Shown here in pieces: positions 28,969-56,653 of a stretch of DNA of 56,841 nt (the first letter of the stretch is position 1; every line of letters begins with the position of its first letter). Under the pieces are notes generated by a model that searched no databases, was not told the origin of the DNA, and saw only the letters and a program-made list of their open reading frames with translations. Both the position numbers and the translations under genes were made by a program. The stretch is from a virus (taxonomy: Duplodnaviria > Caudoviricetes). The stretch spans positions 1 through 56,841 of IMG/VR virus record IMGVR_UViG_3300049811_000087; one strand, written 5' to 3'.

Positions 28969-29189
28969 GCATGCTGGCTGTCACAATCAATGAAGCTACC
29001 GGAATGGCGTTGGGCTTTGCGCTTGGCGTTATATTTATGATTATTCTGTTCAAACTGGTTGGTTCACACGGAGTTATGTGTACCGAAGTCGATAACGAAG
29101 GTGATATAATCTACAGGCTCAAACTCGAAGAGGAACCTTCCGAGCTCAAAAACAAAAAGTTCATAATGTTCCGGGTGTCAAGTAAGTAG
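28965..29189 (+). CDS. Small membrane protein
   Basis: ATGA overlap; TM GMALGFALGVIFMIILF. Confidence 0.55.
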   Translation: MSMLAVTINEATGMALGFALGVIFMIILFKLVGSHGVMCTEVDNEGDIIYRLKLEEEPSELKNKKFIMFRVSSK

Positions 29190-29200
29190 TAACAATAAAT

Positions 29201-29218
29201 ACAACGCTTATAATGAGA
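29201..29218 (+). promoter_or_regulatory. Conserved phage promoter-like motif, copy 1
   Basis: ACAACGCTTATAATGAGA, upstream of RBS and ATG 29238. Confidence 0.8.
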
Positions 29219-29237
29219 CCCTACGGAAAGGTGAACT

Positions 29238-29525
29238 ATGTTCAACCCCTTCAAACGAGAAGAGGACCGTCAGTTGGATGTCCTGATCAATCGTGTGATC
29301 GACGACATGGAATTGTATGGCCCGGACTCTGAGGAATACCCGAGGTTGGTCGAGACCCTGAAGAAGCTTTACAAGCTGAAGGCGCAACAGAAGCCCCGGC
29401 GCGTGAGCCCAGACACGGTCCTGATCGTCCTCGGGAACATCCTTGGTATTCTGGTCATCGTTGCATACGAAGAGAAGCACGTTATCACATCCAAGGCCTA
29501 CTCGACTTTCGTGAAGAGGAACTAG
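29238..29525 (+). CDS. Membrane protein (cassette-type gene)
   Basis: GAAAGG RBS; VSPDTVLIVLGNILGILVIVAYE TM segment. Confidence 0.7.
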   Translation: MFNPFKREEDRQLDVLINRVIDDMELYGPDSEEYPRLVETLKKLYKLKAQQKPRRVSPDTVLIVLGNILGILVIVAYEEKHVITSKAYSTFVKRN

Positions 29526-29543
29526 TACCATACGGAGGTGCAA

Positions 29544-29590
29544 GCACAGGAGTTGTGTTGGAGAAATCTGACGCAGCTTCTGTGTTTTGC
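29544..29590 (+). terminator. Long GAAA-tetraloop hairpin, probable terminator
   Basis: GCACAGGAGTTGTGTTGGA-GAAA-TCTGACGCAGCTTCTGTGT followed by TTT. Confidence 0.6.
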
Positions 29591-29670
29591 ATTTCTAACA
29601 ACCATTCCTAAAATTGCCTGGGGGGATATTTTGGAAAAAGTTTCCAGGTTTAACAGGGGTGACAAAATTT

Positions 29671-29690
29671 ACAACGCCTATAATGGGAGA
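29671..29690 (+). promoter_or_regulatory. Conserved phage promoter-like motif, copy 2 (heads replication operon)
   Basis: ACAACGCCTATAATGGGAGA. Confidence 0.8.
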
Positions 29691-29747
29691 GTTCCTCACG
29701 TCTTATGACGTGACGTAGTTAACCCAACTACGACGACTTTCTTTTTT
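29685..29747 (+). ncRNA. Structured leader / small RNA (three-way junction plus U-tract)
   Basis: GGGAGAGTT/GACTTTCTT closes two perfect 7-bp hairpins, TCACGTC/GACGTGA and CGTAGTT/AACTACG. Confidence 0.55.
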
Positions 29748-29764
29748 GCATCGGAGGAAACGTT

Positions 29765-29926
29765 ATGAAAAAGGTTTCTGTTTATGAGTATAAAGGAGAA
29801 GCGTTTGTAATGGCAAACTCTAAGAATTACGGGTGCCTTCATTTTATCGGAGACGTTTTGCTCACTCTGCTGACTGGAGGTCTTTGGTTGATCTGGATTT
29901 TTGTTAGGGAGATGCGGCGTAGATGA
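29765..29926 (+). CDS. Small membrane protein (53 aa; not in ORF track)
   Basis: GGAGG RBS; ...FIGDVLLTLLTGGLWLIWIFVREMRRR; ATGA overlap with next gene. Confidence 0.7.
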   Translation: MKKVSVYEYKGEAFVMANSKNYGCLHFIGDVLLTLLTGGLWLIWIFVREMRRR

Positions 29927-30849: not shown

Positions 30850-31282
30850 GCGTGCTATTACATACGAGGATTTCAATGGCGAAACGGCCACTGAGACTTT
30901 CTACTTCAATCTGTCCAAGCCTGAATTGGTTGAGTTAGAAGTTGATATGGAGGGTGGTCTCGGTAAGCACATCGAAAGAATTGCGGAGGCCGAGAATAAC
31001 AAGGAGCTCATTGCTCTGTTCAAGCGTGTCATTCTTATTTCCTATGGCATCAAGTCGGACGACGGTAAGAGGTTCGTTAAGTCGGACGAGCTTCGTGCGG
31101 AGTTCGAGTCTCATGCTGCGTACACGGCGTTGTTCATCGAGCTGGCCACAGACGCAAAAGCTGCTGCCGACTTTGTGAATGGCATTATGCCTTCTGACTT
31201 GGTGGAAGCCGCCAAAGCCGATCAAGACAAGCCCACTGGACCTCCTGAGATCACAAAGGAAGCTAATGGATTATCAGGGTAA
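30842..31282 (+). CDS. Conserved hypothetical phage protein
   Basis: MLKRAITYEDFNGE...FYFNLSK.EL...SYG.KSDDGKRFVKS. Confidence 0.7.
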   Translation: MLKRAITYEDFNGETATETFYFNLSKPELVELEVDMEGGLGKHIERIAEAENNKELIALFKRVILISYGIKSDDGKRFVKSDELRAEFESHAAYTALFIELATDAKAAADFVNGIMPSDLVEAAKADQDKPTGPPEITKEANGLSG

Positions 31283-31883
31283 TAGTCATAAGAAGAAGGA
31301 AGCAGAAACTTCTTCTCCGCCAGAAAAAAAGATTGAGCGACTTGAGCTCGAGAGCAAAGTTGTTTCTAGGAAGAAGCCCATTGGAGCTCGGGTAAAGTCA
31401 GTTTTCTTTGGCGGTGAGTTCGACTCTGCAGTTCGGTATATTGGCGCTGAAGTCTTACTTCCAGCGTTTCGAAACCTTTTGGTTGACGCAACCACCAAAG
31501 GTATCGAGCGTATGGTTTACGGGGAATCCAACTACCCAAGGCAGCGTACGCCCGAGTATCGTCCTCGAGTGACCTACAATAGCCCAATTAACCGAGGACC
31601 TCGAGCCAACATTCCAGACCAGCCAAGTCGCCCACAACGAGCTAGGCACGATGACACGGAAATCGTCTTCGGGTCTCGAGGAGATGCCGAGCTTGTTCTC
31701 GATCGCATGCAGGACATCATCGAACAGTACGTGGTTGCTTCTATGGGCGACCTAAACGAGATCGTTGGTCTGCCCACCTCGCCTATTGATAATAAGTGGG
31801 GCTGGGATAACGTTCGACATGCTGAAATTCGACAGACTCGGGATGGGTTCATACTCAATCTCCCGCCAGCACAACCAATCTAA
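31266..31883 (+). CDS. Conserved hypothetical phage protein
   Basis: MDYQGNSH after AAGGA RBS; ...DNKWGW...LNLPPAQPI. Confidence 0.7.
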   Translation: MDYQGNSHKKKEAETSSPPEKKIERLELESKVVSRKKPIGARVKSVFFGGEFDSAVRYIGAEVLLPAFRNLLVDATTKGIERMVYGESNYPRQRTPEYRPRVTYNSPINRGPRANIPDQPSRPQRARHDDTEIVFGSRGDAELVLDRMQDIIEQYVVASMGDLNEIVGLPTSPIDNKWGWDNVRHAEIRQTRDGFILNLPPAQPI

Positions 31884-33626: not shown

Positions 33627-34153
33627 TCATGGAAGAGTCATTGGAGACCCTGTACTTCGAGTGGCTCTACGCAAAGGTGATGTTATCCGATCAGCCTGCT
33701 CAGTCATACACAAATCTAATTAAAGCTCTATATGATACTGAATTTGTGTGGCTTGTAGTTGGCGATGACAACAGAGCTCAAGATGGACTAGACCTTCGCA
33801 GTGAGTTTTTGGAGGCAGCTCAATTTGACCCTGATTGTGTGTACGATTTCATGTTTGGCTGTACTGTTCTTGAAATGCTGATTGCGTTCTCGAGAAGAGC
33901 CGAGTTTCAAACTGATATTCGTCCTAACGAATGGTTTTGGGAGTTCGTTACAAATCTCGGACTAGCAGACCATCACGATGATGACATAGATATCCAGTCG
34001 GTTAACGATATTCTATACAACTTTGTGTGGAGAACATATGATTATACTGGTTTAGGCGGGTTATTTCCTCTTAACAATCCGCTTGTGGACCAAACTGAGA
34101 TAGAAATCTGGTATCAATTCTGCGCCTATCTTGTTGAGAAAGGCTTTGACTAG
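33623..34153 (+). CDS. Conserved hypothetical phage protein
   Basis: YFEWL...DDNRAQDGLDLR...LEMLIA...GGLFPL...EIWYQ. Confidence 0.65.
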   Translation: MIMEESLETLYFEWLYAKVMLSDQPAQSYTNLIKALYDTEFVWLVVGDDNRAQDGLDLRSEFLEAAQFDPDCVYDFMFGCTVLEMLIAFSRRAEFQTDIRPNEWFWEFVTNLGLADHHDDDIDIQSVNDILYNFVWRTYDYTGLGGLFPLNNPLVDQTEIEIWYQFCAYLVEKGFD

Positions 34154-38916: not shown

Positions 38917-39083
38917 TGTGGCCTATGGTTATCGGAGCCCTCTTATTTGCTATCGGCGTTTTGTTTGGCTTCGGAATCTCGCACGCTTCTTTCAAGTTGA
39001 TTCTTGAAGGCGACGAATCTCCGTTTGACGATTACAACCGATCTTATTCATCTATAAAGGAAAAGGAACACAATGCAGTTTGA
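38916..39083 (+). CDS. Small membrane protein (55 aa; not in ORF track)
   Basis: GGAGG RBS, TGATG overlap; MWPMVIGALLFAIGVLFGFGI. Confidence 0.55.
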   Translation: MWPMVIGALLFAIGVLFGFGISHASFKLILEGDESPFDDYNRSYSSIKEKEHNAV

Positions 39084-39333
39084 TACTTATGCCCGTAAGC
39101 CGTTCGTTGTGGAGGCCGTGGAGATCACGGAGGAGAACATCGAGCAGGTTGCTGAGTTTGTCGGTACTGTCCGAAAGAAGGATGACGGAACGTCGTTCAT
39201 TCAGGTCGACCGTCGCCTTATCCCCAACGTCTACCGAGTTTACCCTGGGTTCTTCATGACGAAGATGGGCGATAACGTTCGTTGCTACTCTCCCAAGATC
39301 TTCAGGGATCAGTTCGAGTTGATTGAAAGCTGA
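39073..39333 (+). CDS. Hypothetical protein
   Basis: Y.RKPFVVEAVEIT...F...FE pattern of small phage beta proteins. Confidence 0.65.
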   Translation: MQFDTYARKPFVVEAVEITEENIEQVAEFVGTVRKKDDGTSFIQVDRRLIPNVYRVYPGFFMTKMGDNVRCYSPKIFRDQFELIES

Positions 39334-39351
39334 TAAAGGAGTTTAAAAACA

Positions 39352-39546
39352 ATGAAGATCAAGAGTCCTGAACAGTTGGTTATTGGTGATGTTATTCCTA
39401 ACTGGGGAGCCGATCTGGTTGTTAAACACACAGCGCCGGAGCCTCTGGGGTATGACATTCCTCTTAGTATTCGGGTTGAGTTTGAAAGCGGCAGGTATGC
39501 CAATTACCCTGTAGGAACTGCAATCCGAGTTGTAGATAAAGGGTAA
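39352..39546 (+). CDS. Hypothetical protein
   Basis: AAGGAG RBS; LVIGDVI SH3-like start. Confidence 0.55.
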   Translation: MKIKSPEQLVIGDVIPNWGADLVVKHTAPEPLGYDIPLSIRVEFESGRYANYPVGTAIRVVDKG

Positions 39547-39554
39547 CAAAATCT

Positions 39555-39575
39555 ACAACGCCTATAATGAAGAGA
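39555..39575 (+). promoter_or_regulatory. Conserved phage promoter-like motif, copy 3 (heads accessory/tRNA operon)
   Basis: TAACA-N6-ACAACGCCTATAATGAAGAGA. Confidence 0.8.
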
Positions 39576-39634
39576 AAGGCGATATCGAATGATATTACCT
39601 GTGGATTCCCATCCACACCTCTTCTTTTATTTTT
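39569..39634 (+). ncRNA. Structured leader / small RNA (three-way junction plus U-tract)
   Basis: GAAGAG/CTCTTC closes GGCGATATC/GATATTACC and TGTGGAT/ATCCACA hairpins, then TTTTATTTTT. Confidence 0.55.
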
Positions 39635-39651
39635 CCATGAAAGGATTAAGA

Positions 39652-39864
39652 ATGACATTAACTTCTAAGGTTGGCAAGTTCATTTTTGCTGACCACTGTG
39701 AGCTGTCCAAAGCTAAGCTGATTCGGGATACCGTGATGGGGCAAATCCTGAATCCGCCCGAGGGCAGTCAAAGGCTTCCGAGAGATGAAAAGGCTATTTT
39801 CACTTTCGTAGCCAGTGCATTCAAAAAGGACGCTCCCAAGCGGGAGGCCATCGTCCTTTCATGA
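39652..39864 (+). CDS. Hypothetical protein
   Basis: AAAGGA RBS before ATG 39652. Confidence 0.55.
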   Translation: MTLTSKVGKFIFADHCELSKAKLIRDTVMGQILNPPEGSQRLPRDEKAIFTFVASAFKKDAPKREAIVLS

Positions 39865-40265
39865 TCGTTTCAGGGCGCTACAACCTTTCGCCAAGAGTTG
39901 TACAGTCCGCAGCGGAACGCCCCCAGCACCCCTGGTCGGACCGCCCTGTGACTTTGATCAAACAGTGCCTTTGTTCATGGCCTTGTGTCGGTAAAGACCA
40001 CGTAGTGTATTTTTCCTCTCCCGGCTTGGATACACGTGTACCTCGTAAAAATCTGGTGACTTGATCCTTTACGATGATGACACTATACGTCCGTGGTTGC
40101 CTTAACTCGCAGTCTGGTGGAGTCTGTAGTGACGATCGATGAGTTCCTCTCGTCATGGTACCTTTTAAATCGTCGAGTCATTCGGCGGGCCAGATTGTTA
40201 TTTCGCCTCTGTAGGGCGTCTCTCACCCAGGCTGAGCATCCTGGGGTATATCAAAACTGCTCCAC
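39865..40265 (+). ncRNA. Candidate ~400-nt structured non-coding RNA with pseudoknots
   Basis: No RBS-supported ORF; many nested helices and two pseudoknot pairings read by eye (see findings). Confidence 0.5.
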
Positions 40266-40308
40266 TTCGCTCAAAAAAATTCACCATTTAATAATAGGAG
40301 AAATACTA

Positions 40309-40524
40309 ATGGACCGCGTTTTTGTTATCATTGAAGTTCTATACAAGAATGGTGGCGACTGGCCTCACGACTCCGACAGGGTTCAGTATGGGCCATTTAT
40401 GACTGGTGCAGATGCTATGGAGTTCTACATTGAAGGTGTTAAGATGGGTAAATTCTACCCAAATCATTTTTTGACGCGAAGAGTCAACCCACCGTCTTAT
40501 GCCCCTACTTACCAGGAGAGTTAA
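40309..40524 (+). CDS. Hypothetical protein
   Basis: AGGAG RBS before ATG 40309. Confidence 0.6.
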   Translation: MDRVFVIIEVLYKNGGDWPHDSDRVQYGPFMTGADAMEFYIEGVKMGKFYPNHFLTRRVNPPSYAPTYQES

Positions 40525-40808
40525 TGAGCATTTTTGTTGATGAACCAAAAGTCGTGCCGTTTTCTGACGAAGAGACGTCTACTGACAAGACCGAAGCTGC
40601 TCATATTGTCAAAACGGAGGGTAATGAAGACGCGACAGCTAAAGTCCTTGAAGCCCGTATTCACGGACTCGTTTTGGAAGCCTTGTGTGGATATCGATGG
40701 ATACCTTCACGAGATCCGAAGCAACTCCCGGTATGTGAAGAATGCAAAGAGATATACGAGACATACAAGATGTTCAACGACGGACTGAACGAAAGACCTA
40801 GTGTATGA
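40524..40808 (+). CDS. DUF3039 family protein (actinobacterial, Zn-binding)
   Basis: HIVK...ALCG..WIPSRDP...PVCEECKEIYE. Confidence 0.75.
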   Translation: MSIFVDEPKVVPFSDEETSTDKTEAAHIVKTEGNEDATAKVLEARIHGLVLEALCGYRWIPSRDPKQLPVCEECKEIYETYKMFNDGLNERPSV

Positions 40809-41050
40809 AGATTATCATTAACTCGCCTGCTGAAAACCCGGGATACGCAACTTCCATAAATACTGGAGCAATGCAAATCACAGTGCTCGAGTGTTTTAGC
40901 GGGGTCAGGTTTATTACTAAAGATGGTGAAATTATGACTATATCTATGCGAGACTCTGGTTTTGAAGGAACCTATCAAGATGCACCTGGGTCTCCTGTTC
41001 ATGAATTCGAGTACAAAAATGGAGAACACGTTGGTAAGTTTATTAATTAG
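40805..41050 (+). CDS. Hypothetical protein
   Basis: ATGA overlap. Confidence 0.55.
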   Translation: MKIIINSPAENPGYATSINTGAMQITVLECFSGVRFITKDGEIMTISMRDSGFEGTYQDAPGSPVHEFEYKNGEHVGKFIN

Positions 41051-42313: not shown

Positions 42314-42387
42314 GCTCCTCTAGCTCAATTGGTTAGAGCAACGGACTTTTAATCCGAAGGTTCTGGGTTCAAGTCCCAGGGGGAGCA
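42314..42387 (+). tRNA. tRNA-Lys(UUU)
   Basis: GCTCCTC/GGGGAGC acceptor, GCTC/GAGC D stem, CTTTTAA anticodon loop, GTTCAAGT T loop; CCA not encoded. Confidence 0.9.
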
Positions 42388-46265: not shown

Positions 46266-46285
46266 ACAACGCTTATAATGAGAGA
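46266..46285 (+). promoter_or_regulatory. Promoter-like motif copy 4
   Basis: ACAACGCTTATAATGAGAGA. Confidence 0.8.
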
Positions 46286-46314
46286 GAACACCAACCCCAT
46301 ACGGAGGAATCATC

Positions 46315-46554
46315 ATGGAAGAGTTCAACAGCATCGAGACCGAGCTGGAGACCGACACCGAAGAGACTGACACCGAGGCAGGTTCGGTTCTTGCCACCGT
46401 CGCCGTGTTCGGCATCGGCACCATCGTGGGTGCTGCTGCTGCACGTGGCTACGACAAGGCGAAGACCACCGTCAAGGAGCAGCTCGAGGCTCGTCGGGCC
46501 CGCAAGGCCGCGATCGCGAACGCCATCGAGACCACCGCCACAGAGGCGAAGTGA
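46315..46554 (+). CDS. Cassette gene: acidic N-terminus plus hydrophobic segment
   Basis: GGAGG RBS; GC3-rich codons. Confidence 0.7.
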   Translation: MEEFNSIETELETDTEETDTEAGSVLATVAVFGIGTIVGAAAARGYDKAKTTVKEQLEARRARKAAIANAIETTATEAK

Positions 46555-46558
46555 CTCA

Positions 46559-46610
46559 AGAGGAAGTGTCCCTTGTAGCGTAAAACCTACAAGGGCTCTT
46601 TCTTTTTCTT
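46559..46610 (+). terminator. Intrinsic terminator
   Basis: CCCTTGTAG/CTACAAGGG stem plus T-tract. Confidence 0.7.
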
Positions 46611-46621
46611 AAACAACTTTT

Positions 46622-46641
46622 ACAACGCCTATAATGAGAGA
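46622..46641 (+). promoter_or_regulatory. Promoter-like motif copy 5
   Basis: ACAACGCCTATAATGAGAGA. Confidence 0.8.
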
Positions 46642-46658
46642 CTACCAAAGGAGTTTAA

Positions 46659-46802
46659 ATGAGCGTACTGATCAGATTCTTCGATCTTGTCGAGAGCAAT
46701 CGTCAGCGTGAAGAAAAGCGTCGTCAGAACAAAAGCCGTAACCGGATGATGTTCATGACGTTCGGACTAGCTGGCTTGTTCCTGGGAAGGAAGAAGAGCT
46801 GA
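46659..46802 (+). CDS. Cassette gene, 47 aa (not in ORF track)
   Basis: AAGGAG RBS; MSVLIRFFDLVESNRQREEKRRQNKSRNRMMFMTFGLAGLFLGRKKS. Confidence 0.65.
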   Translation: MSVLIRFFDLVESNRQREEKRRQNKSRNRMMFMTFGLAGLFLGRKKS

Positions 46803-46827
46803 AGACACCCACTACCGGGTGGACTCT

Positions 46828-46859
46828 AAAAGAGGGGCACTGCGGTGCCTTTCTTTTTT
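46828..46859 (+). terminator. Intrinsic terminator
   Basis: AAAAGAGGGGCAC-TGCG-GTGCCTTTCTTTTTT. Confidence 0.7.
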
Positions 46860-46886
46860 GATTTAATCTAGTAAGGAGCTTTTGCT

Positions 46887-47072
46887 ATGTTTTTAGTTTT
46901 TATCCCACTGGGAATTTCTGCAGCGACTCTGGCGTACACCTATGTTGTGAGTAAGAAGATCAAAGAAGATATTGCTGTGTTGGATGGTACTCTCGAGGGT
47001 CTTATTGACGCTTTATATCAGGAACGCATTGACGGTATGTTTAAATTTATAACAGAAGAGCTCGACGATTAG
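46887..47072 (+). CDS. Small membrane protein
   Basis: AAGGAG RBS; N-terminal TM; no promoter motif of its own. Confidence 0.6.
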   Translation: MFLVFIPLGISAATLAYTYVVSKKIKEDIAVLDGTLEGLIDALYQERIDGMFKFITEELDD

Positions 47073-47080
47073 CATTTTTC

Positions 47081-47100
47081 GCAACGCTTATAATGAGAGA
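47081..47100 (+). promoter_or_regulatory. Promoter-like motif copy 6
   Basis: GCAACGCTTATAATGAGAGA. Confidence 0.8.
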
Positions 47101-47117
47101 CTACAGAGGAGAATGCA

Positions 47118-47282
47118 ATGTTTTGGATTGTTTATTCATACGTCGTCGCCGTTACCATCGGAATTCTCGGTTTCATCATCTGGAGCCTAAAGCAAGATCT
47201 TCACGCCGCAGATGAGTACATCGATGAACTCGAGGAAAAGTGCGATACGCTGGATAAGTTCCGACAGATCGTCATGAACTGA
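47118..47282 (+). CDS. Cassette gene, 54-aa TM plus coiled-coil peptide (not in ORF track)
   Basis: GAGGAG RBS; MFWIVYSYVVAVTIGILGFIIWSLKQDLHAADEYIDELEEK... Confidence 0.7.
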   Translation: MFWIVYSYVVAVTIGILGFIIWSLKQDLHAADEYIDELEEKCDTLDKFRQIVMN

Positions 47283-47290
47283 AGGAGTTG

Positions 47291-47330
47291 AAAAGTTGAG
47301 GGGGTTACTACAACCCCTCTTCTTTTTTCT
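47291..47330 (+). terminator. Intrinsic terminator
   Basis: GAGGGGGTT/AACCCCTC stem plus T-tract. Confidence 0.7.
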
Positions 47331-47340
47331 AACATATTTC

Positions 47341-47360
47341 ACAACGCCTATAATGAGAGA
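47341..47360 (+). promoter_or_regulatory. Promoter-like motif copy 7
   Basis: ACAACGCCTATAATGAGAGA. Confidence 0.8.
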
Positions 47361-47378
47361 CTACCAAAGGAGTAACCT

Positions 47379-47552
47379 ATGGAGAAGTTGAAGACCAAGC
47401 TCAAGAAGGAATGGGAAGAGCGCCCGATCATCGTGATCACAGCCGGAAGCGTGGCAGCAAGCATGCTGATCAAGCTGCTGGAAGTGACGAACGAGACGCG
47501 CAACTCCCGTGCCTGGGCGAAGGAGGTCAAGCGACGCTCCAAGATGTCCTGA
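47379..47552 (+). CDS. Cassette gene, 57 aa (not in ORF track)
   Basis: AAGGAG RBS; MEKLKTKLKKEWEERPIIVITAGSVAASMLIKLL... Confidence 0.7.
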   Translation: MEKLKTKLKKEWEERPIIVITAGSVAASMLIKLLEVTNETRNSRAWAKEVKRRSKMS

Positions 47553-47560
47553 GCAACATC

Positions 47561-47600
47561 TCAAAAGGAGAAGGCCCCACAAGGCTTTCTCTTTTTTCTT
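47561..47600 (+). terminator. Intrinsic terminator (repeat family)
   Basis: AAAAGGAGAAGGCC-CCACAA-GGCTTTCTCTTTTTT. Confidence 0.75.
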
Positions 47601-47610
47601 AACATTTTTC

Positions 47611-47630
47611 GCAACGCTTATAATGAGAGA
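47611..47630 (+). promoter_or_regulatory. Promoter-like motif copy 8
   Basis: GCAACGCTTATAATGAGAGA. Confidence 0.8.
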
Positions 47631-47644
47631 CATAAGGAGAAATC

Positions 47645-47779
47645 ATGCAGATGTACCAGATGTCAGAGAAAGAAGCATCACGAGCACTGGCCCGCTTTGT
47701 CGTCACATTTGTGGCGCTCAAGGTGGCCCTGTACGTGAGCATCAACCTACTGGCACGGGCACTTCGCGAGAAGTCCTGA
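47645..47779 (+). CDS. Cassette gene, 44-aa TM peptide (not in ORF track)
   Basis: AAGGAG RBS; MQMYQMSEKEASRALARFVVTFVALKVALYVSINLLARALREKS. Confidence 0.7.
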   Translation: MQMYQMSEKEASRALARFVVTFVALKVALYVSINLLARALREKS

Positions 47780-47781
47780 AG

Positions 47782-47820
47782 TCAAAAAGAGGGGGCCCCA
47801 CAAGGCTTTCTCTTTTTTCT
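47782..47820 (+). terminator. Intrinsic terminator (repeat family)
   Basis: AAAAAGAGGGGGCC-CCACAA-GGCTTTCTCTTTTTT. Confidence 0.75.
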
Positions 47821-47830
47821 AACATTTTTC

Positions 47831-47850
47831 GCAACGCTTATAATGAGAGA
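47831..47850 (+). promoter_or_regulatory. Promoter-like motif copy 9
   Basis: GCAACGCTTATAATGAGAGA. Confidence 0.8.
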
Positions 47851-47867
47851 CAACAAGAGGAGACATA

Positions 47868-48032
47868 ATGTTCTGGATGCTATTCACAATCATCTTGTCG
47901 ATCGTCACCGCAACCGCCATCGGCGTTGCCGTCTACGCACTACTCGAAGAGTACAGGCAGATGGCACAGCAGATCAAGGAAGACGAAGAACAGATCGATG
48001 AGTTGAAGCGAACCATCATGAGCCTGGTCTAA
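47868..48032 (+). CDS. Cassette gene, 54-aa TM plus coiled-coil peptide (not in ORF track)
   Basis: GAGGAG RBS; MFWMLFTIILSIVTATAIGVAVYALLEEYRQMAQQIKEDEEQIDELKR... Confidence 0.7.
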   Translation: MFWMLFTIILSIVTATAIGVAVYALLEEYRQMAQQIKEDEEQIDELKRTIMSLV

Positions 48033-48042
48033 CAAGATCATC

Positions 48043-48080
48043 TCAAAAAGAGGAGGCCCCACAAGGCTTCCCTTTTTTCT
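48043..48080 (+). terminator. Intrinsic terminator (repeat family)
   Basis: AAAAAGAGGAGGCC-CCACAA-GGCTTCCCTTTTTT. Confidence 0.75.
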
Positions 48081-48091
48081 TAACATTATCT

Positions 48092-48111
48092 ACAATGCTT
48101 ATAATGAGAGA
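48092..48111 (+). promoter_or_regulatory. Promoter-like motif copy 10
   Basis: ACAATGCTTATAATGAGAGA. Confidence 0.78.
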
Positions 48112-48127
48112 CACAGAAGGAGAAATC

Positions 48128-48262
48128 ATGTTGGAAACAACAATCTTGGTCATGTTGGTCTTGTTCCCGCTCTTCGTCCTGCTCATCACCTGGTTGGTGG
48201 TGTTCAAGGCGTTGGGATGGATCAAGAACAGCATCGGCCGGTTGTTCACCCTGCGTGGATGA
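48128..48262 (+). CDS. Cassette gene, 44-aa TM peptide (not in ORF track)
   Basis: AAGGAG RBS; MLETTILVMLVLFPLFVLLITWLVVFKALGWIKNSIGRLFTLRG. Confidence 0.7.
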   Translation: MLETTILVMLVLFPLFVLLITWLVVFKALGWIKNSIGRLFTLRG

Positions 48263-48274
48263 CACACACGTGTT

Positions 48275-48311
48275 GAAAAGAGGGGGCCCTACAAGGCTTT
48301 CTCTTTTTTCT
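48275..48311 (+). terminator. Intrinsic terminator (repeat family)
   Basis: AAAAGAGGGGGCC-CTACAA-GGCTTTCTCTTTTTT. Confidence 0.75.
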
Positions 48312-48322
48312 TAACATGTTCT

Positions 48323-48342
48323 ACAACGCCTATAATGAGAGA
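48323..48342 (+). promoter_or_regulatory. Promoter-like motif copy 11
   Basis: ACAACGCCTATAATGAGAGA. Confidence 0.8.
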
Positions 48343-48361
48343 CGACAAAAGGAGAATTGTC

Positions 48362-48547
48362 ATGAAGACCAATGAGGAATTGAAGACTACCCGAGCGAAC
48401 ATCGACATCGACTGGAACCTAGTTCTGGTTGCCCTGTGTACTTACTGGGCGACACTGGACGGAACCACGCCGGTGTCCGCGGCTCTCAAGGAAGAAATCT
48501 TCGAGGAGATCAAAAGCCTATCACGACAAGTCGGACTGAATATCTGA
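48362..48547 (+). CDS. Cassette gene, 61 aa
   Basis: AAGGAG RBS before ATG 48362; the track start 48335 is inside the promoter motif. Confidence 0.7.
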   Translation: MKTNEELKTTRANIDIDWNLVLVALCTYWATLDGTTPVSAALKEEIFEEIKSLSRQVGLNI

Positions 48548-48548
48548 C

Positions 48549-48588
48549 TCAAAAAAGGAATAGGCCCTAACAAGGCTTATTCTTTTTT
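48549..48588 (+). terminator. Intrinsic terminator (repeat family)
   Basis: AAAAAAGGAATAGGCC-CTAACAA-GGCTTATTCTTTTTT. Confidence 0.75.
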
Positions 48589-48601
48589 GCTAACAAAAAC
48601 T

Positions 48602-48621
48602 ACAACGCCTATAATGAGAGA
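48602..48621 (+). promoter_or_regulatory. Promoter-like motif copy 12
   Basis: ACAACGCCTATAATGAGAGA. Confidence 0.8.
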
Positions 48622-48639
48622 CAACAGAAGGAGATTGTA

Positions 48640-48804
48640 ATGTTGAAGGCCATCAAGGTCGTCGTGTACACCATCATCACCATCCTGACCGGACTGGGTA
48701 CGCTCGGAGTCATGGGCTTCGGGTGGATCAGCTACCGCGAGGGTTCGATGAAGAAGGGCGCACTGACCGTCATGGACGCCGTCGACACCATCGACACCAT
48801 CTGA
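48640..48804 (+). CDS. Cassette gene, 54-aa TM peptide (not in ORF track)
   Basis: AAGGAG RBS; MLKAIKVVVYTIITILTGLGTLGVMGFGWISYREG... Confidence 0.7.
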   Translation: MLKAIKVVVYTIITILTGLGTLGVMGFGWISYREGSMKKGALTVMDAVDTIDTI

Positions 48805-48812
48805 GAGCAATC

Positions 48813-48856
48813 TCAAAGGAGAAGGCCCCCTAACAAGGGCTTTCTTCTTTTATTTT
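48813..48856 (+). terminator. Intrinsic terminator (repeat family)
   Basis: AAAGGAGAAGGCCC-CCTAACAA-GGGCTTTCTTCTTT. Confidence 0.7.
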
Positions 48857-48886
48857 CTTAATAACAAAACAATAGGAGGAAAAGTA

Positions 48887-49069
48887 ATGAAGTTCACTGG
48901 AGGATATGTGTTGGGAGCCTTGACGGTCGTTGGCATGGGGGTGTCATTCGTCGCAGGGATTGTCGCATGTGATTGGACATACTCCAAGAAGCAGGAGGCT
49001 GCATCTAAGATTTCAGACGCAACGGTAGCAAGCGTCATCGGTGAGTACATCAAGGCAAAGAGGAACTAA
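48887..49069 (+). CDS. Small membrane protein
   Basis: AGGAGG RBS; N-terminal TM. Confidence 0.65.
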   Translation: MKFTGGYVLGALTVVGMGVSFVAGIVACDWTYSKKQEAASKISDATVASVIGEYIKAKRN

Positions 49070-49299
49070 TGGTCATTATCCCGATTGAACCGAACACTTT
49101 GGATATCATCGCTGCTATGAACGGTGGTTTGAAGCCAAAGATCGACCCCAAGGAACATTCGAGCTTCATCTATCATGGTAAAGACAAGCTGAACGAGATT
49201 GTGCCTTCGATCTACGTTGGTACTTTATTGGCGTCTGGAGACTATCAGATAATCGAGATGCGGGCGATTGTCAAGAACGTTGAAGAAAAAGGAGTATAA
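49069..49299 (+). CDS. Hypothetical protein
   Basis: TAATG overlap. Confidence 0.6.
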   Translation: MVIIPIEPNTLDIIAAMNGGLKPKIDPKEHSSFIYHGKDKLNEIVPSIYVGTLLASGDYQIIEMRAIVKNVEEKGV

Positions 49300-49451
49300 T
49301 GTCAGAGAAGCCTGTCGGTAAAGAGACGTACGAGATTCTCAAGATCCTTAAGCAGACCTACATCGATGAGGGTCTGTGGATGAAGAATCGTATTCGGTGC
49401 GAGAACATCCAGGCAGACATCGACCTTTACGAGAGGTTCAACAAAAAATAA
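49299..49451 (+). CDS. Hypothetical protein, 50 aa (not in ORF track)
   Basis: AAGGAG RBS, TAATG overlap; MSEKPVGKETYEILK... Confidence 0.6.
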   Translation: MSEKPVGKETYEILKILKQTYIDEGLWMKNRIRCENIQADIDLYERFNKK

Positions 49452-49459
49452 CAGGTTTT

Positions 49460-49479
49460 ACAACGCTTATAACGAGAGA
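49460..49479 (+). promoter_or_regulatory. Promoter-like motif copy 13
   Basis: ACAACGCTTATAACGAGAGA. Confidence 0.75.
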
Positions 49480-49496
49480 CAACAGAAGGAGTTGTA

Positions 49497-49730
49497 ATGC
49501 TTGCAGTAACCGCATTCTGGTCGAACGATTCGTTCCGACTGAACTACGTGTCTGACGACATCGCAGAAGCTGTTCCGAGCGCTTTCATCAAGGCTTACCC
49601 TGAGGGGGCGGCCATGGTGAAGAAGCACATCGAGAGCAGGAAGCTGACGAAGTCCGGCAAATACGTGTTCGTCACGGGCGAAGATGGACGACTGCTAGGG
49701 TACGAGCGAGTACGAGACAACGAGGGCTGA
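49497..49730 (+). CDS. Cassette gene, 77 aa
   Basis: AAGGAG RBS. Confidence 0.7.
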   Translation: MLAVTAFWSNDSFRLNYVSDDIAEAVPSAFIKAYPEGAAMVKKHIESRKLTKSGKYVFVTGEDGRLLGYERVRDNEG

Positions 49731-49738
49731 AAGGAGCT

Positions 49739-49775
49739 CAAAAGGTTGGGGGTGGCAACACCCCTTTCCTTTTTT
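49739..49775 (+). terminator. Intrinsic terminator
   Basis: GGGGTG-GCAA-CACCCC stem plus T-tract. Confidence 0.7.
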
Positions 49776-49787
49776 GTCACATTATTC

Positions 49788-49807
49788 ACAACGCTTATAA
49801 TGAGAGA
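49788..49807 (+). promoter_or_regulatory. Promoter-like motif copy 14
   Basis: ACAACGCTTATAATGAGAGA. Confidence 0.8.
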
Positions 49808-49826
49808 CAACCATAAGGAGACTAAG

Positions 49827-50039
49827 ATGAACCGAGTTCTTGGTAAGCTTGAAGTCGTTGTGAATGACGGACGTTGGCACGCCTACGGAGATCTCACTGA
49901 TCCTGGAACAAACTACGCTATGGGCGTATTGACCGGGATGGGTGGAATCAACGAAACGGTGACCAACGGCATCTGGGAGTTCACAGTGGTTCAGGCTGAA
50001 GACGGACTGTTGATGACATCACTGTTGCCAATCAGTTGA
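49827..50039 (+). CDS. Cassette gene, 70 aa
   Basis: AAGGAG RBS before ATG 49827. Confidence 0.7.
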   Translation: MNRVLGKLEVVVNDGRWHAYGDLTDPGTNYAMGVLTGMGGINETVTNGIWEFTVVQAEDGLLMTSLLPIS

Positions 50040-50040
50040 A

Positions 50041-50078
50041 TCAAAAAGGGATGGCCCCTAACAAGGGCTTTCTCTTTT
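50041..50078 (+). terminator. Intrinsic terminator (repeat family)
   Basis: AAAAAGGGATGGCCC-CTAACAA-GGGCTTTCTCTTTT. Confidence 0.7.
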
Positions 50079-53094: not shown

Positions 53095-53115
53095 ACAACG
53101 TATATAATAGAGAGA
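53095..53115 (+). promoter_or_regulatory. Promoter-like motif copy 15 (variant; heads nuclease-RNAP operon)
   Basis: ACAACGTATATAATAGAGAGA followed by a 12-bp hairpin. Confidence 0.65.
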
Positions 53116-53161
53116 GAGGTGCTAAAACAGCATTTCTTTCCTATTTTCTGGAGGAATACCG

Positions 53162-53473
53162 ATGCGAGAGTCCAAATATCAGCGTGACCTCATTGAGAGG
53201 ATCTACCACATTTTACCTGGGTCCGTGGTCATCAAGAATGATCCGACTCGGATACAAGGCATTCCAGATTTGCTGGTTCTTTGGGAAGATAAGTGGGCGA
53301 TGCTTGAAGTTAAGCGTTCAATTTATGAAGATTCTGAACCGAATCAGGAATACTATGTTGCAGAAATGGATCGGATGTCATTTGCAGCTTTCATCTACCC
53401 GGAAAACGAAGACGAGGTTCTAGATGCGCTTCAATCAGCATTTGGACTTAAAAGACAAGCACGCATTTCTTAG
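53162..53473 (+). CDS. VRR-NUC / Holliday-junction-resolvase-like PD-(D/E)xK nuclease
   Basis: MRESKYQ...GIPDL...LEVK...NQ. Confidence 0.75.
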   Translation: MRESKYQRDLIERIYHILPGSVVIKNDPTRIQGIPDLLVLWEDKWAMLEVKRSIYEDSEPNQEYYVAEMDRMSFAAFIYPENEDEVLDALQSAFGLKRQARIS

Positions 53474-53984
53474 TCCTAGTAACTATCATTGGATCAACTA
53501 TAGTGATGCCAAACTAGAAGCTAGGTATACAGCAGCGCAAGCAGCTCGACGAGGAACTGATCTTCATTTATTGGCCCACGAAGCCATTCGATTAGGTGTC
53601 AAATTAGCAAAAAGTAATTTAGCATTGTCGACATACGTCAATGATGCAATTAACTACAAGATGACTTCAGAACAAATCTTGTATTACTCAGACAATTGTT
53701 TTGGTACAGCAGATACTATTTGTTTTCGTCGAAATAAATTAAGGATTCATGACCTGAAAACCGGCGTAACACCAACCAGTGAAAAACAACTGGAAGTTTA
53801 TGCTGCTCTATTTTGTTTAGAGTATGATGTGTTTCCTTATGATATTTCGATAGAATTGCGGATCTATCAAAATGATGAAATTCGCGTATTTGACCCAGTT
53901 CCGGAAGCAATCGAATCTATTATGGGTGTTATAGTTGAGCACAACAACCGAATTGAAGAGTTTCGCAGACAACAGAATCTTTGA
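53424..53984 (+). CDS. Cas4/RecB-like PD-(D/E)xK exonuclease (DUF2800-like)
   Basis: HAFLSPS...GT.LH...E...GTAD...IHDLKTG...QL..YA. Confidence 0.75.
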   Translation: MRFNQHLDLKDKHAFLSPSNYHWINYSDAKLEARYTAAQAARRGTDLHLLAHEAIRLGVKLAKSNLALSTYVNDAINYKMTSEQILYYSDNCFGTADTICFRRNKLRIHDLKTGVTPTSEKQLEVYAALFCLEYDVFPYDISIELRIYQNDEIRVFDPVPEAIESIMGVIVEHNNRIEEFRRQQNL

Positions 53985-53998
53985 GAAGGAGGGGTAAC

Positions 53999-56653
53999 GT
54001 GTATATTGACGAACAAACATATCTTGCACATTATGGTACCCCTCGACACTCGGGACGGTATCCTTGGGGATCTGGAGGAGATCCTCGAAACAGCCGATCA
54101 TTTTTAGAAATGGTAAAGGACCTTATTAAACAAGGGTTTACTGAAAAAGAAGTTGCCGATTCTTTTGGAATCTCAACAACTGATCTTCGAGCCTATAAGT
54201 CCATTGCCAAAGCAGAAGTTAAACAAGAGCAAATTCTTCAAGCTGAGAAACTTAAAGCAAAAGGCGTTTCTGATCTACAAGCAGCTAAGCAGATGGGCAT
54301 CCCTACGTCCACCTACAAAACGCTTCTACTGCCCTCGGCAAAACTTAAGCAAGACGCCATTCAAGTCGCCGTCGAGGTGCTCAAGAATCAGGTAGACAAA
54401 GTAGAATATCTTGACGTTGGCGCAGGAACAGAAATGTATTTGGGCCTAAGTCCTCAGCGTTTGAAACAAGCTCTTACAATCCTAAAAGCTGAAGGATATA
54501 ACATTTATTCAAATATCCCAGTTCCTCAGCTTGGCACCAGCCATGACACTAAGCTTCGTGTGTTAACAACTCCAGATAAAACATGGACAGACACTAGGCT
54601 TAATGTAGAGAAAGTAAAGCTTCTAAATGAACATCTTGATGATACAGGAAGAGGGTCTTTAGGAATTCTTCCGCCCATTGCAATAAATCCAAATAGGGTT
54701 GCTGTTAAATATGGGTCTGAAGGTGGAGCCAATGCGGACGGTGTGATGTACATTCGTCCTGGCGCTAAAGATCTTGATCTTGGCGGAAAAACTTATGCTC
54801 AGGTTCGAATTCAAGTTGGTGATAAACATTATCTTAAAGGTATGGCCCTCTACAAAGATGACCTTCCTGACGGTGTTGACATTTTGTTTAATACCAATAA
54901 AGAAAGCACAGGTAACAAACTTGATGCTTTGAAGAAGCTTGAATCAGATCCCGACAATCCCTTTGGTGCCCAGATTCGGCGTCAGATCACAAAGCTAGAT
55001 CCAAAGACTGGTAAAGAAGTCAATGCGTCAGCAGTTAACATAGTTAATGAAGAAGGTGGTTGGAGTGATTGGTCTAGAAGTATCGCTTCTCAGGTCCTCT
55101 CTAAACAGTCTCCTTCATTGGCTAGAGAAAGACTTGACGTAACCTACAAGCAAAGGAAAGCCGATCTTGATGAGATCATGGCTTTGACTAATCCAACAGT
55201 TAAAAAGAAATTGTTAGAAGAGTTTGCTGAAGGTACCGATGCTGCATCAATCCATCTTAAAGCGGCAAGTCTTCCTAAACAAGCTTGGCATGTTATCTTA
55301 CCAGTTAATTCTTTGTCTGAAACAGAAGTGTACGCACCTAACTATGACAATGGGCAACGAGTTGTGTTGATTAGGTATCCTCATGGAGGAACGTTTGAAA
55401 TACCTGAACTCATTGTCAACAACAGTAACAGAGAAGCTCGTCGACTTCTTAAAGACGCTAAAGATGCTATAGCTATTAACGCTAAGGTAGCAGAGCGTCT
55501 GTCTGGTGCAGACTTTGATGGCGACACTGTGTTGGTTATACCAAATGAATCTAACAAGATCAAATCGTCTAAGCCTCTACAAGGATTGATTAACTTCAAT
55601 CCAAGAGAAACTTATCGAGAGTATCCAGGCATGCCGGTTATGAAGAACACTCAGCAACAAATGGGTGAGATCTCTAATCTAATTACCGACATGACACTTA
55701 GGCAAGCTTCTAGAGAAGAACTAGAGCGAGCAGTTAAGCATTCAATGGTTGTTATTGACGCTGAGAAACATCGCCTTAACCACAAGCAATCATACAAAGA
55801 TCATGGCATCAAGGCACTGAAAGAAAAGTATCAAGCCAAACCGGATGGTACTGCAGGTGGAGCCAGCACTCTAATCTCTAGAGCCAAGAAGAAACCACCA
55901 ATCCCTGAGGTTCGGCTAAGGAAGCAAAGTGAAGGCGGACCTGTAGACAAGAAAACTGGCGAATTAGTCTATGTTCCAACAGGTAGAATAGATAATCGGA
56001 CAGGCAAACCAGCTAAAGTTCGAGGCTTTCTTACTGAGATGGAACTGGCTAGAGATGCTAGTACCCTATCATCGGGTACTCGTATGGAGAATCTCTATGC
56101 AGACCACGCCAATAAACTTAAGACAATGGCTAATCAAGCCAGACTCGAGAGCATCCGTACACCACGTGCACCCTACTCCAGGTCAGCCAAACAAGTATAC
56201 TCAAAGCAAGTAGATTCTTTAGAGCGCAAACTAACCGAGGCTAAGCTTAACGCCCCCCTTGAACGCCGTGCCCAGATCCTAGGTAATGAGATTCTTAAAC
56301 AAAAGAAGGCTGACAATCCAGCATTGGATCCTTCATCTGAAAAGAAACTAAAGTCTCAAGCCTTGGAAGAAGCACGTAATAGGACAGGCGCTAAAAAGAA
56401 GAAGATTGACATCACCCCTGACGAATGGGCAGCCATTCAAGCAGGTGCTATTAGTGATACTAAACTAAAGTCAATCCTTGACAACGCTGACATGGATAAG
56501 GTTAGAGAGTATGCAACTCCTAAGAACAAACTTTTGATGTCACCCAACAAGGTGGCTCGAGCGCAAGCTCTGCTTGAGAAGTATACAAGGGCTGAAGTAG
56601 CAGCTCGTCTTGGTGTTTCCCTTTCCACATTAGACAGATCGTTAGGAGGATGA
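53999..56653 (+). CDS. Putative single-subunit two-barrel (double-psi beta-barrel) RNA polymerase with N- and C-terminal HTH domains
   Basis: AGGAGG RBS with GTG 53999; ADGVMYI...AQVRI...LKGMA; LIRYPH...AIAIN..V...SGADFDGDTVLVIP; HTH-like EVADSFGIS, AAKQMGIP, EVAARLGVSLSTL. Confidence 0.75.
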   Translation: MYIDEQTYLAHYGTPRHSGRYPWGSGGDPRNSRSFLEMVKDLIKQGFTEKEVADSFGISTTDLRAYKSIAKAEVKQEQILQAEKLKAKGVSDLQAAKQMGIPTSTYKTLLLPSAKLKQDAIQVAVEVLKNQVDKVEYLDVGAGTEMYLGLSPQRLKQALTILKAEGYNIYSNIPVPQLGTSHDTKLRVLTTPDKTWTDTRLNVEKVKLLNEHLDDTGRGSLGILPPIAINPNRVAVKYGSEGGANADGVMYIRPGAKDLDLGGKTYAQVRIQVGDKHYLKGMALYKDDLPDGVDILFNTNKESTGNKLDALKKLESDPDNPFGAQIRRQITKLDPKTGKEVNASAVNIVNEEGGWSDWSRSIASQVLSKQSPSLARERLDVTYKQRKADLDEIMALTNPTVKKKLLEEFAEGTDAASIHLKAASLPKQAWHVILPVNSLSETEVYAPNYDNGQRVVLIRYPHGGTFEIPELIVNNSNREARRLLKDAKDAIAINAKVAERLSGADFDGDTVLVIPNESNKIKSSKPLQGLINFNPRETYREYPGMPVMKNTQQQMGEISNLITDMTLRQASREELERAVKHSMVVIDAEKHRLNHKQSYKDHGIKALKEKYQAKPDGTAGGASTLISRAKKKPPIPEVRLRKQSEGGPVDKKTGELVYVPTGRIDNRTGKPAKVRGFLTEMELARDASTLSSGTRMENLYADHANKLKTMANQARLESIRTPRAPYSRSAKQVYSKQVDSLERKLTEAKLNAPLERRAQILGNEILKQKKADNPALDPSSEKKLKSQALEEARNRTGAKKKKIDITPDEWAAIQAGAISDTKLKSILDNADMDKVREYATPKNKLLMSPNKVARAQALLEKYTRAEVAARLGVSLSTLDRSLGG

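Follow-up and report, generated by a model that had tools for sequence, protein, structure and literature searches.

A terminator-like branched leader RNA between a repeated promoter and a long operon in a siphovirus genome

What is the short structured RNA that appears to stand at the head of a long operon in the siphovirus record IMGVR_UViG_3300049811_000087, and why does its layout, though not its sequence, recur elsewhere in the same genome? The window analysed here is the whole of that IMG/VR record (56,841 nt, positions 1 to 56,841), and the element lies at 39569–39634. An initial annotation had described it as the second of two leader RNAs with the same architecture and had taken the repeated topology to argue for a functional RNA class rather than chance. 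Shuffled controls and orthologous sequences support the first half of that claim, namely that the topology does not arise by chance and has been conserved in evolution. The second half has to be modified, because what recurs most commonly among relatives is not one specific folded RNA but a terminator-like frame, so that 'promoter-proximal terminator-type leader' is the more fitting name for the class. Our preferred reading, which we hold with about even confidence, is that the element is a cis-acting attenuator that would free an end-paired RNA of ~60 nt and gate read-through into the operon, because a helix adjoining a U-run between a promoter and a ribosome-binding site (RBS) is the anatomy of a leader terminator.

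The fold begins at the base directly after TATAAT, G39569, which is the putative +1. RNAfold predicts a three-way junction, on which the minimum-energy and centroid structures agree (−21.0 kcal/mol, z −5.57, none of 200 shuffles as stable). As originally noted, GAAGAG and CUCUUC (the P1 helix) close two hairpins, H1 and H2, which abut with 0 nt between them and are followed by the U-run (Table 1); H1 starts 8 nt after the putative start. The pairing of H1 needed a slight revision, the minimum-energy form being AGG/CCU, a bulged C and GAUAUC/GAUAUU. The P1 helix is followed at once by UUUUAUUUUU, that is, by the helix and U-tract (0–2 nt apart) of an intrinsic terminator. The single G+C-rich hairpin with a loop of 3–8 nt is absent: the helix on the U-run side encloses a 44-nt interior with two hairpins, and a consensus terminator scan called H2 only (39600–39617), not the whole element. 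The leader does head a long operon, as had been stated: between 39555 and 46266 there is no further promoter copy, and the open reading frames (ORFs) there lie on the plus strand.

The twin at 29685–29747, to which the leader had been likened, indeed has the same layout without any common hairpin sequence. It consists of an 8-bp P1, 2 nt, two 7-bp hairpins, 2 nt, the returning P1 strand and a U-run, its 3' side reading CUUUCU and then UUUUU, and RNAfold assigns it −22.9 kcal/mol (z −4.27, again 0 of 200 shuffles as stable). Shuffled controls seldom gave an equivalent of either element. Among 1000 dinucleotide shuffles the closed two-hairpin fold appeared 10 times for the leader and 17 times for the twin, and the observed energy was reached in none and in one, respectively. 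When the closing strands were kept fixed and only the interior was shuffled, two hairpins formed in 313/1000 (leader) and 132/1000 (twin), and the observed energy was reached in 6 and 2. The topology alone is thus not very rare once the ends pair, whereas the stability of the interior is.

Table 1. Coordinates of the leader, its twin, the third module promoter, the polymerase gene and nearby structured RNAs (positions are those of the window unless a relative, L-numbered locus or cultured phage is named)
Feature	Position	Strand	Details
Promoter copy 3	39546–39568	+	ACAAAATCTACAACGCCTATAAT; TATAAT 39563–39568; exact match to 24-nt motif
P1 5' strand	39569–39574	+	GAAGAG; pairs with 39619–39624 in minimum-energy and centroid folds
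H1	39577–39600	+	AGG, bulged C, GAUAUC, loop GAAU, GAUAUU, A, CCU; RNAfold
H2	39601–39616	+	GUGGAU, loop UCCC, AUCCAC; RNAfold
P1 3' strand	39619–39624	+	CUCUUC; RNAfold
U-run	39625–39634	+	UUUUAUUUUU; sequence
RBS and first operon gene	39640–39864	+	AAAGGA 39640–39645; ATG 39652 to 39864, 70 aa
Twin element	29662–29747	+	promoter copy 2 29662–29684; P1 29686–29693 with 29735–29742
Twin hairpins and downstream signals		+	H1 29696–29713; H2 29714–29732; U-run 29743–29747; then GGAGG, ATG 29765
Third module promoter (53095) and leader	53095–53149	+	single terminator-like hairpin 53109–53143, UAUUUUC; ahead of gene 53162–53473, exonuclease, polymerase
RNA polymerase, 890 aa, helix-turn-helix domains	53981–56653	+	phrog_4291, 1210 bits
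Conserved RNA, ~80–120 nt	39870–39950; L007 10936–11016; L089 699–779; L010 9797–9875		beside the unit of the leader at 39569
Conserved RNA, further copies	L092 711–791; L090 994–1086; L012 10702–10815; L021 13441–13562
Pistol ribozymes	L007 11239–11297; L008 12371–12433; L012 11419–11477; L015 11063–11125; L016 13774–13823
Family B RNA, ~90–110 nt	L008 10713; L009 6848; L015 1084; L016 1347; L030 146; L053 362
Family B RNA, further copies	L010 and L011 ~250 nt past the anchor gene; Petito 31091–31230; Gordon ~31622–31710

Known RNA families do not account for the element. Rfam at gathering thresholds found only three tRNAs in the whole window (at 42314, 44322 and 45699, called by ARAGORN and the Rfam tRNA model), permissive Rfam scans of 39400–39800 and 29100–29900 (E up to 10) gave chance-level matches on the other strand only, and neither ARAGORN nor Rfam found a tRNA or tmRNA at the leaders; the hairpin loops of the leader at 39569 are 4 nt long. 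Coding use of the in-frame ATG at 39589, in the loop of H1, was considered and rejected: the homologue in L009 starts at a Met equivalent to 39652, and the frame opened by the ATG of the twin is closed by a stop two codons on. Complementarity to the H2 loop with its flanks (GGAUUCCCAUC) is seen at an 11-mer in the terminase gene (12532–12542) and at a 9-mer covering the endolysin start codon (65–73), both matches being weak, post hoc and near chance.

The promoter ahead of the leader is one of a repeated set. The motif ACAACGCyTATAATG followed by AGAGA has seven matches at up to three mismatches to the 24-mer, against none expected, all on the plus strand, and a looser core gives ~15 copies in the window, confined to the stretch from 29.2 to 53.1 kb. 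Copies start at 29201, 29671, 39555 and then from 46266 onward, so that the copy at 39555 had rightly been numbered as the third. Twelve copies drive short leaders (AGAGAC, AAGGAG, ATG) before small genes, most of them bounded by hairpin-plus-U terminators. Only three head multi-gene modules, namely those at 29671 (replication genes), 39555 (small genes and the three tRNAs) and 53095 (a 103-aa gene, an exonuclease and the polymerase). All three module promoters are followed, from the first base, by a terminator-like fold, which is a three-way junction in two cases and a single hairpin in the third, and the single-gene cassette promoters from 46266 to 49788 have no leader structure. The arrangement at 53095 is also found before the homologous gene in at least nine distant relatives. 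The region 46266–50078 comprises ~11 single-gene cassettes, each with a promoter, a 20-nt leader, a small ORF and a terminator that adjoins the next promoter; in the terminator stems, the 5' side is rich in purines and the 3' side in pyrimidines. Two further matches, at 4080 and 5772, lie inside long ORFs and were therefore taken as chance. No credible copy was found in 1–29200, the lysis, structural and tail half, and canonical sigma-70 promoter matches in 28.9–40.2 kb were no commoner than in shuffles; the late genes may be served by read-through or by another promoter.

To place the leader in its lineage, 80 viral contigs encoding the polymerase-primase were fetched with their flanks. Promoters were sought with a heuristic pattern of our own on the plus strand of each locus only, folds are single-sequence minimum-energy structures, and identical sequences were counted once. 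The window and the 80 loci yielded 183 promoter-like matches, and in 37 of them (34 unique) base 1–3 after the promoter pairs with the bases immediately ahead of a T-run. A looser test that was blind to the T-run found at least five T in the next eight positions after 33 of 117 closed 5' folds, against 1051 of 17,952 background windows (5.9%), and the compact, stable closed folds are mostly among those 33. Throughout, the helix beside the U-run is built from the first bases after TATAAT (5–8 bases against a pyrimidine strand), and the interior holds one to three hairpins. Shine-Dalgarno and start codon follow within 60 nt, with no second promoter, in 28 of the 34 unique elements, and the downstream genes of these units therefore depend on read-through. 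Of the other six, two lead into another promoter and four into neither, a conserved structured RNA coming next in two of these four. An exact promoter scan of viral contigs gave a single match, in L006, which was discarded as a chance match in coding sequence.

Orthologous sites can be compared directly. The closest relative, L007 (82% polymerase identity), has both elements at equal distances from equivalent genes. A metagenome scan with the conserved gene at 39073–39333 added 12 loci, of which 11 were examined; L091 was dropped, its contig ending 36 nt past this anchor gene. At the site syntenic to the leader at 39569, the strict test found a closed fold in 10/16 and two hairpins in nine (the window, L007, L089, L012, L090, L093, L098, L096 and L095). 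Five more (L016, L017, L021, L092 and L097) were judged by eye alone to be end-paired, the simple hairpin of L013 begins at a base other than the first, and L008/L009 and L010/L011 carry a different RNA of ~110 nt in an equivalent frame. Compensatory changes were read helix by helix by hand, since MAFFT and RNAalifold aligned the three orthologues of this leader poorly and gave a useless consensus. The window, L007 and L089 keep GGAU-yCCC-AUCC in H2, and both strands vary at the two outer pairs (U-A to A-U; G-C to U-G or C-G). The lower stem of H1 differs between L007 and L089 by one double and one single substitution, and H1 of the window is unrelated to either in sequence. Beyond the closest relatives, hairpin sequences are not conserved. 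Loops containing CCC occur, among 53 scored, twice in the window and in L007, L012 and L018, and by eye also in L016, L017 and L089. Moreover, one to three G-U pairs occur in the helices, and in six of seven elements folding is better for the sense than for the antisense strand, which points to an RNA on the plus strand. In L030 (495–590) and in Gordonia phage Petito (33780–33900) the interior of a closed leader is a tandem duplication of one hairpin motif, which hints that two-hairpin interiors can arise by duplication.

Consistent with the uncultured loci, the same promoter and RNAs occur in cultured phages. The promoter is present in 11 forward and no reverse copies in Petito, in seven forward and one reverse in Arthrobacter phage Gordon and, with one mismatch allowed, in 11 forward and one reverse in Lactococcus phage P118, nine of these with ACAyACCCTATAATG; it is essentially absent from Faecalibacterium phage FP_oengus, and Streptomyces phage RavenPuff has one copy only. 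Units of P118, a phage of 30% G+C, stand after its promoters at 23654 and 28180. Two paralogous leaders of P118 match the leader at 39569 exactly in layout and consist of GAGAG, H1, H2, CUCUC, 10–13 U and a Shine-Dalgarno sequence. They differ at three RNA positions, two of which form a compensatory change from U-A to C-G in H2. Closed RNAs of Petito and Gordon lie in unannotated gaps, in Petito at 31025–31272 and 33766–33935; one such gap of 390 nt in Gordon (KU160646.1 31468–31858, L106 1469–1859) holds three tandem promoter-plus-RNA units, the first of which has GCGGTTCGAATCCGC, a perfect match to the T-arm of tRNAs, within an end-paired fold. ARAGORN called no tRNA in the Gordon units and Rfam gave no match. 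At the DNA level, 39000–41000 has no similarity match among deposited phages. The words 'promoter' and 'terminator' are absent from an Arthrobacter phage survey and from the Giantsbane preprint, and a literature description of these leaders was not found, supplementary motif tables and transcript maps aside. A 43–50-bp intergenic 'TATAAT motif' has been noted in the Gordonia cluster DJ phages Vardy and Conley and read as a possible sigma-70 promoter (PMC9671010, PMC10868162). It is the promoter motif of the window; the passages of those announcements that deal with it cover copies with a promoter and a short leader only and do not mention structured leaders.

Which polymerase reads this promoter bears directly on where the leader starts. 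The window is a nearly complete record of a siphovirus akin to Arthrobacter cluster AU and Gordonia cluster DJ phages, with genes for a terminase, a portal, a duplicated major tail protein, a tape measure protein and a fused primase-polymerase, and all its large ORFs are on the plus strand. Near its end lies the gene for an 890-aa protein with a DFDGD motif at residues 511–515, which on its sequence we read as a single-subunit two-barrel RNA polymerase and a candidate reader of the repeated phage promoter. Its Pfam RdRP score is weak (15.2 bits, under the cut-off), HTH_23 scores 33.8 bits, and a search of solved structures with its sequence gave no match. Homologues are present in Arthrobacter, Gordonia, Streptomyces, Lactococcus and other phages. 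Beside DFDGD, the protein has an N-terminal helix-turn-helix and a C-terminal one resembling sigma-70 region 4, a combination which suggests that promoter recognition is built into one polymerase chain. The promoter, for its part, has ACAyrCCn upstream of TATAAT conserved between the Gordonia phage and the Lactococcus phage at a 14-bp spacing, with no −35 box at sigma-70 spacing, and conservation extends past TATAAT to a G and then AGA or AAA. Transcription probably starts close to TATAAT, because these flanks are shared between Actinobacteria and Lactococcus phages, the spacing is unlike that of sigma-70 promoters, and the Shine-Dalgarno sequence GAAGG of the annotated P118 gp23 lies only 5–9 nt after TATAAT. 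In promoters of single-subunit polymerases, transcription starts at the equivalent G. A start at this position would mean that the promoter's own transcripts carry both P1 strands.

The action of such an attenuator can be laid out in steps, of which we infer the start site, the termination itself, its efficiency and the regulation of read-through. Transcription most likely starts at the G directly after TATAAT. GAAGAG would stay unpaired while the two hairpins form and would pair with CUCUUC as the polymerase reaches the U-run, producing a branched intrinsic terminator ~57–66 nt from the start. Whether initiated at the leader's own promoter or in the replication operon upstream, some transcripts would stop at this point and yield a small end-paired RNA, and the remainder would read into the 6.6-kb operon with a structured 5' end. 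The leader would thus set the level or the timing of expression, either as a fixed attenuator or through read-through that requires a phage factor or a particular polymerase. Since the plain early single-gene cassettes use the same promoter without such a leader, it would be the leader that distinguishes these operons.

Several points weigh against attenuation. As a terminator, a 6-bp helix around a branched interior of 44 nt is unusual and probably weak; a simple scan called H2 only. Efficient termination, on the other hand, would leave the operon without a promoter, so that an extra assumption (leakiness, an antiterminator or an insensitive polymerase) is needed. The interior hairpins receive no specific role, yet two-hairpin interiors and, in the closest relatives, CCC loops recur. 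Nor was the structure significantly likelier on promoters without an upstream terminator (odds ratio 0.49, p 0.26). Finally, a new promoter comes immediately after the U-run in a few cases (2 of the 34 unique elements, Petito and Gordon), an arrangement that fits a free-standing RNA gene better. The domains that mediate hairpin-dependent pausing and termination in cellular polymerases are missing from YonO, according to PMC5467207; we take this as a lead, not as evidence, for polymerase-specific behaviour at leaders of this kind.

A free-standing small RNA gene is indeed a possible, though unlikely, explanation: an end-paired RNA of ~60 nt would act in trans, as a decoy, a tRNA-like molecule or by base pairing, and expression of the operon would be a leaky by-product. 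The tandem units of Gordon, each with its own promoter and one with the T-arm sequence, would suit such a gene, as would L016 989 and L025 52, each directly before another promoter, the recurrence of CCC loops in the closest relatives, and the conserved ~110-nt family B RNA that occupies an equivalent frame (L008/L009, L010/L011, L015, L016, L030, L053, Petito and Gordon). However, hairpin sequences that vary beyond the closest relatives make a sequence-specific trans target unlikely, 28 of the 34 units adjoin an RBS with no promoter behind, Rfam, tRNA and tmRNA matches are lacking, and the complementarity of the H2 loop to sites in the window is weak and post hoc.

We grant a similarly low probability to an insulating terminator overlapped by its own promoter. 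TATAAT would then be the −10 element of host sigma-A, with a start ~7 nt downstream that leaves the 5' strand of P1 upstream of the start; transcripts from upstream would stop at the U-run, and the promoter's own transcripts would read through, with H1 and H2 as 5' stabilising hairpins. This removes the paradox of self-termination and gives the interior hairpins a sequence-independent role. It also agrees with the perfect −10 hexamer, with its interpretation in the relevant passages of the two genome announcements (PMC9671010, PMC10868162), with the length of the 5' strand of P1 in branched forms (5–8 nt, the length of a discriminator) and with the lack of a terminator between the replication operon and promoter 3 or directly before promoter 2. 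It is disfavoured by the upstream boxes, which are common to Actinobacteria and Lactococcus phages and whose 14-bp spacing misfits sigma-70, by the conservation of G and AGA/AAA after TATAAT, as in promoters of single-subunit polymerases, and by the P118 Shine-Dalgarno sequence 5–9 nt after TATAAT. Furthermore, five units have both an upstream terminator and a closed fold, and overall the two are not significantly complementary.

More doubtful is a broader proposal, in which the leaders belong to an undescribed class of '5'-closed' RNAs that spans the whole lineage, from Lactococcus 1706-like to Gordonia and Arthrobacter phages, and goes with the promoter of the two-barrel polymerase, and the junction is a polymerase-specific signal rather than a passive attenuator. 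If this were true, the junction could be a checkpoint that only the phage polymerase, or one modified by the nascent hairpins as with put RNA, could pass; alternatively, it could yield a small RNA acting on the host. Either way, a new polymerase family would come with a regulatory grammar that is itself new.

It is improbable that the element is only a 5' stabiliser or translation element, which would shield the mRNA at its 5' end, or expose or mask the RBS, the U-run being incidental or ribosome-recruiting. Classical 5' stabilisers are helices that begin with the first or second base, and the pyrimidine strand and U-run stand 5–15 nt before the Shine-Dalgarno sequence, with which they can pair in an 86-nt fold of the twin; yet a U-run directly after the closing helix, with which it is strongly associated, is a terminator signature that a stabiliser does not need. 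A chance fold or a functionless by-product of duplication seems very improbable, for although purine-rich starts and pyrimidine-rich terminator strands are general in the cassettes of this phage, so that some end pairing comes free, and 13–31% of shuffled interiors still form two hairpins between fixed closing strands, the observed energy is reached by only 0–1 in 1000 whole and 2–6 in 1000 interior shuffles, the copies in the window have no common hairpin sequence and are thus not a recent duplication, and orthologues and paralogues keep their pairs by compensatory changes in a layout found also in the Lactococcus phage of 30% G+C.

Other structured RNAs lie near the leader. An RNA of ~80–120 nt at 39870–39950 stands just downstream of the leader unit, and in some relatives just upstream. 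CAGGGCG/CGCCCUG forms its closing helix, CUACAA/UUGUAG a hairpin and GUCYG/CRGAC the third helix, and bases at the junction are conserved. The window and L007 are ~90% identical over it, far above the flanks, and across eight sequences 8 of the 17 predicted pairs change on both sides; Rfam gave no match at E up to 5. The listed ORF at 39861–40064, which overlaps this RNA, is perhaps no genuine gene. Five relatives have pistol ribozymes (RF02679) that exceed the gathering threshold and lie within the same module, on the downstream side of the polymerase gene; the window has none at threshold, though ~39990–40010 resembles part of the L015 copy. Given this vicinity in relatives, the RNA at 39870–39950 is a candidate for a new RNA class or ribozyme. 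Family B RNAs follow the same promoter and end in a U-run, and their shared blocks include GACACGAAUG, a T-arm-like hairpin and a hairpin with the loop UUUUCGUUGG. Their genome position varies among phages, in cultured phages they fall in unannotated gaps, and Rfam gave no match to them.

The clade that carries these leaders is common, comprising SEA-PHAGES clusters AU, AM and DJ, the lactococcal 1706-like dairy phages and many uncultured soil phages, and it carries an unstudied single-subunit two-barrel RNA polymerase. With the attenuator reading, a conserved promoter built like those of T7, hairpin-plus-U terminators and a recurrent leader that divides plain early cassettes from long operons would be linked in a testable model for the grading or timing of transcription in these phages. 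Unannotated intergenic gaps of 100–390 nt in deposited genomes would also be accounted for, and compact promoters and attenuators would become available as parts for use in Actinobacteria and lactic acid bacteria.

The known systems closest to the leader include leader attenuators and the lambda pR'-tR' region. At pR'-tR' a short 6S RNA is made unless Q modifies the polymerase, and in both settings, as here, a helix and then a U-run lie near a promoter ahead of a long operon, a short RNA being the default and read-through being needed. In contrast to these systems, the helix beside the U-run uses the first transcribed bases and encloses two hairpins in a branched stem; neither an antiterminator nor an alternative anti-terminator fold was identified for the leader, and, unlike pR', its promoter is probably read by a phage single-subunit polymerase. 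The put RNAs of HK022, which suppress termination by acting on the host polymerase in lambdoid phages, are likewise two adjacent stem-loops just past the promoter of a long operon, defined by structure and differing between the copies of one phage. Their sequence and structure are conserved in lambdoid phages, and they have no enclosing helix and no U-run behind, whereas the leader is terminator-like, its hairpin sequences vary among relatives and its phage is not lambdoid. In the pRNA of phi29-type motors, too, the 5' and 3' ends of a phage RNA from a strong promoter pair and close a three-way junction with two hairpins. That RNA is 117–174 nt long and has complementary loops for ring formation, whereas the loops GAAU and UCCC of the leader are not complementary, the phage has a terminase large subunit, and Rfam gave no match at E up to 10. 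The resemblances to put RNA and to phi29 pRNA are thus only topological. The leaders of T7 gene 10, ompA and SP82 are 5'-terminal stem-loop stabilisers without a U-run behind; the present structure would share with them its position at the first bases of the transcript, provided that +1 is G39569, but it pairs the 5' end with a strand 45 nt away and then continues into a U-run. Overall, the leader would work like an intrinsic terminator or attenuator, with a branched, end-closing stem in place of the usual single hairpin.

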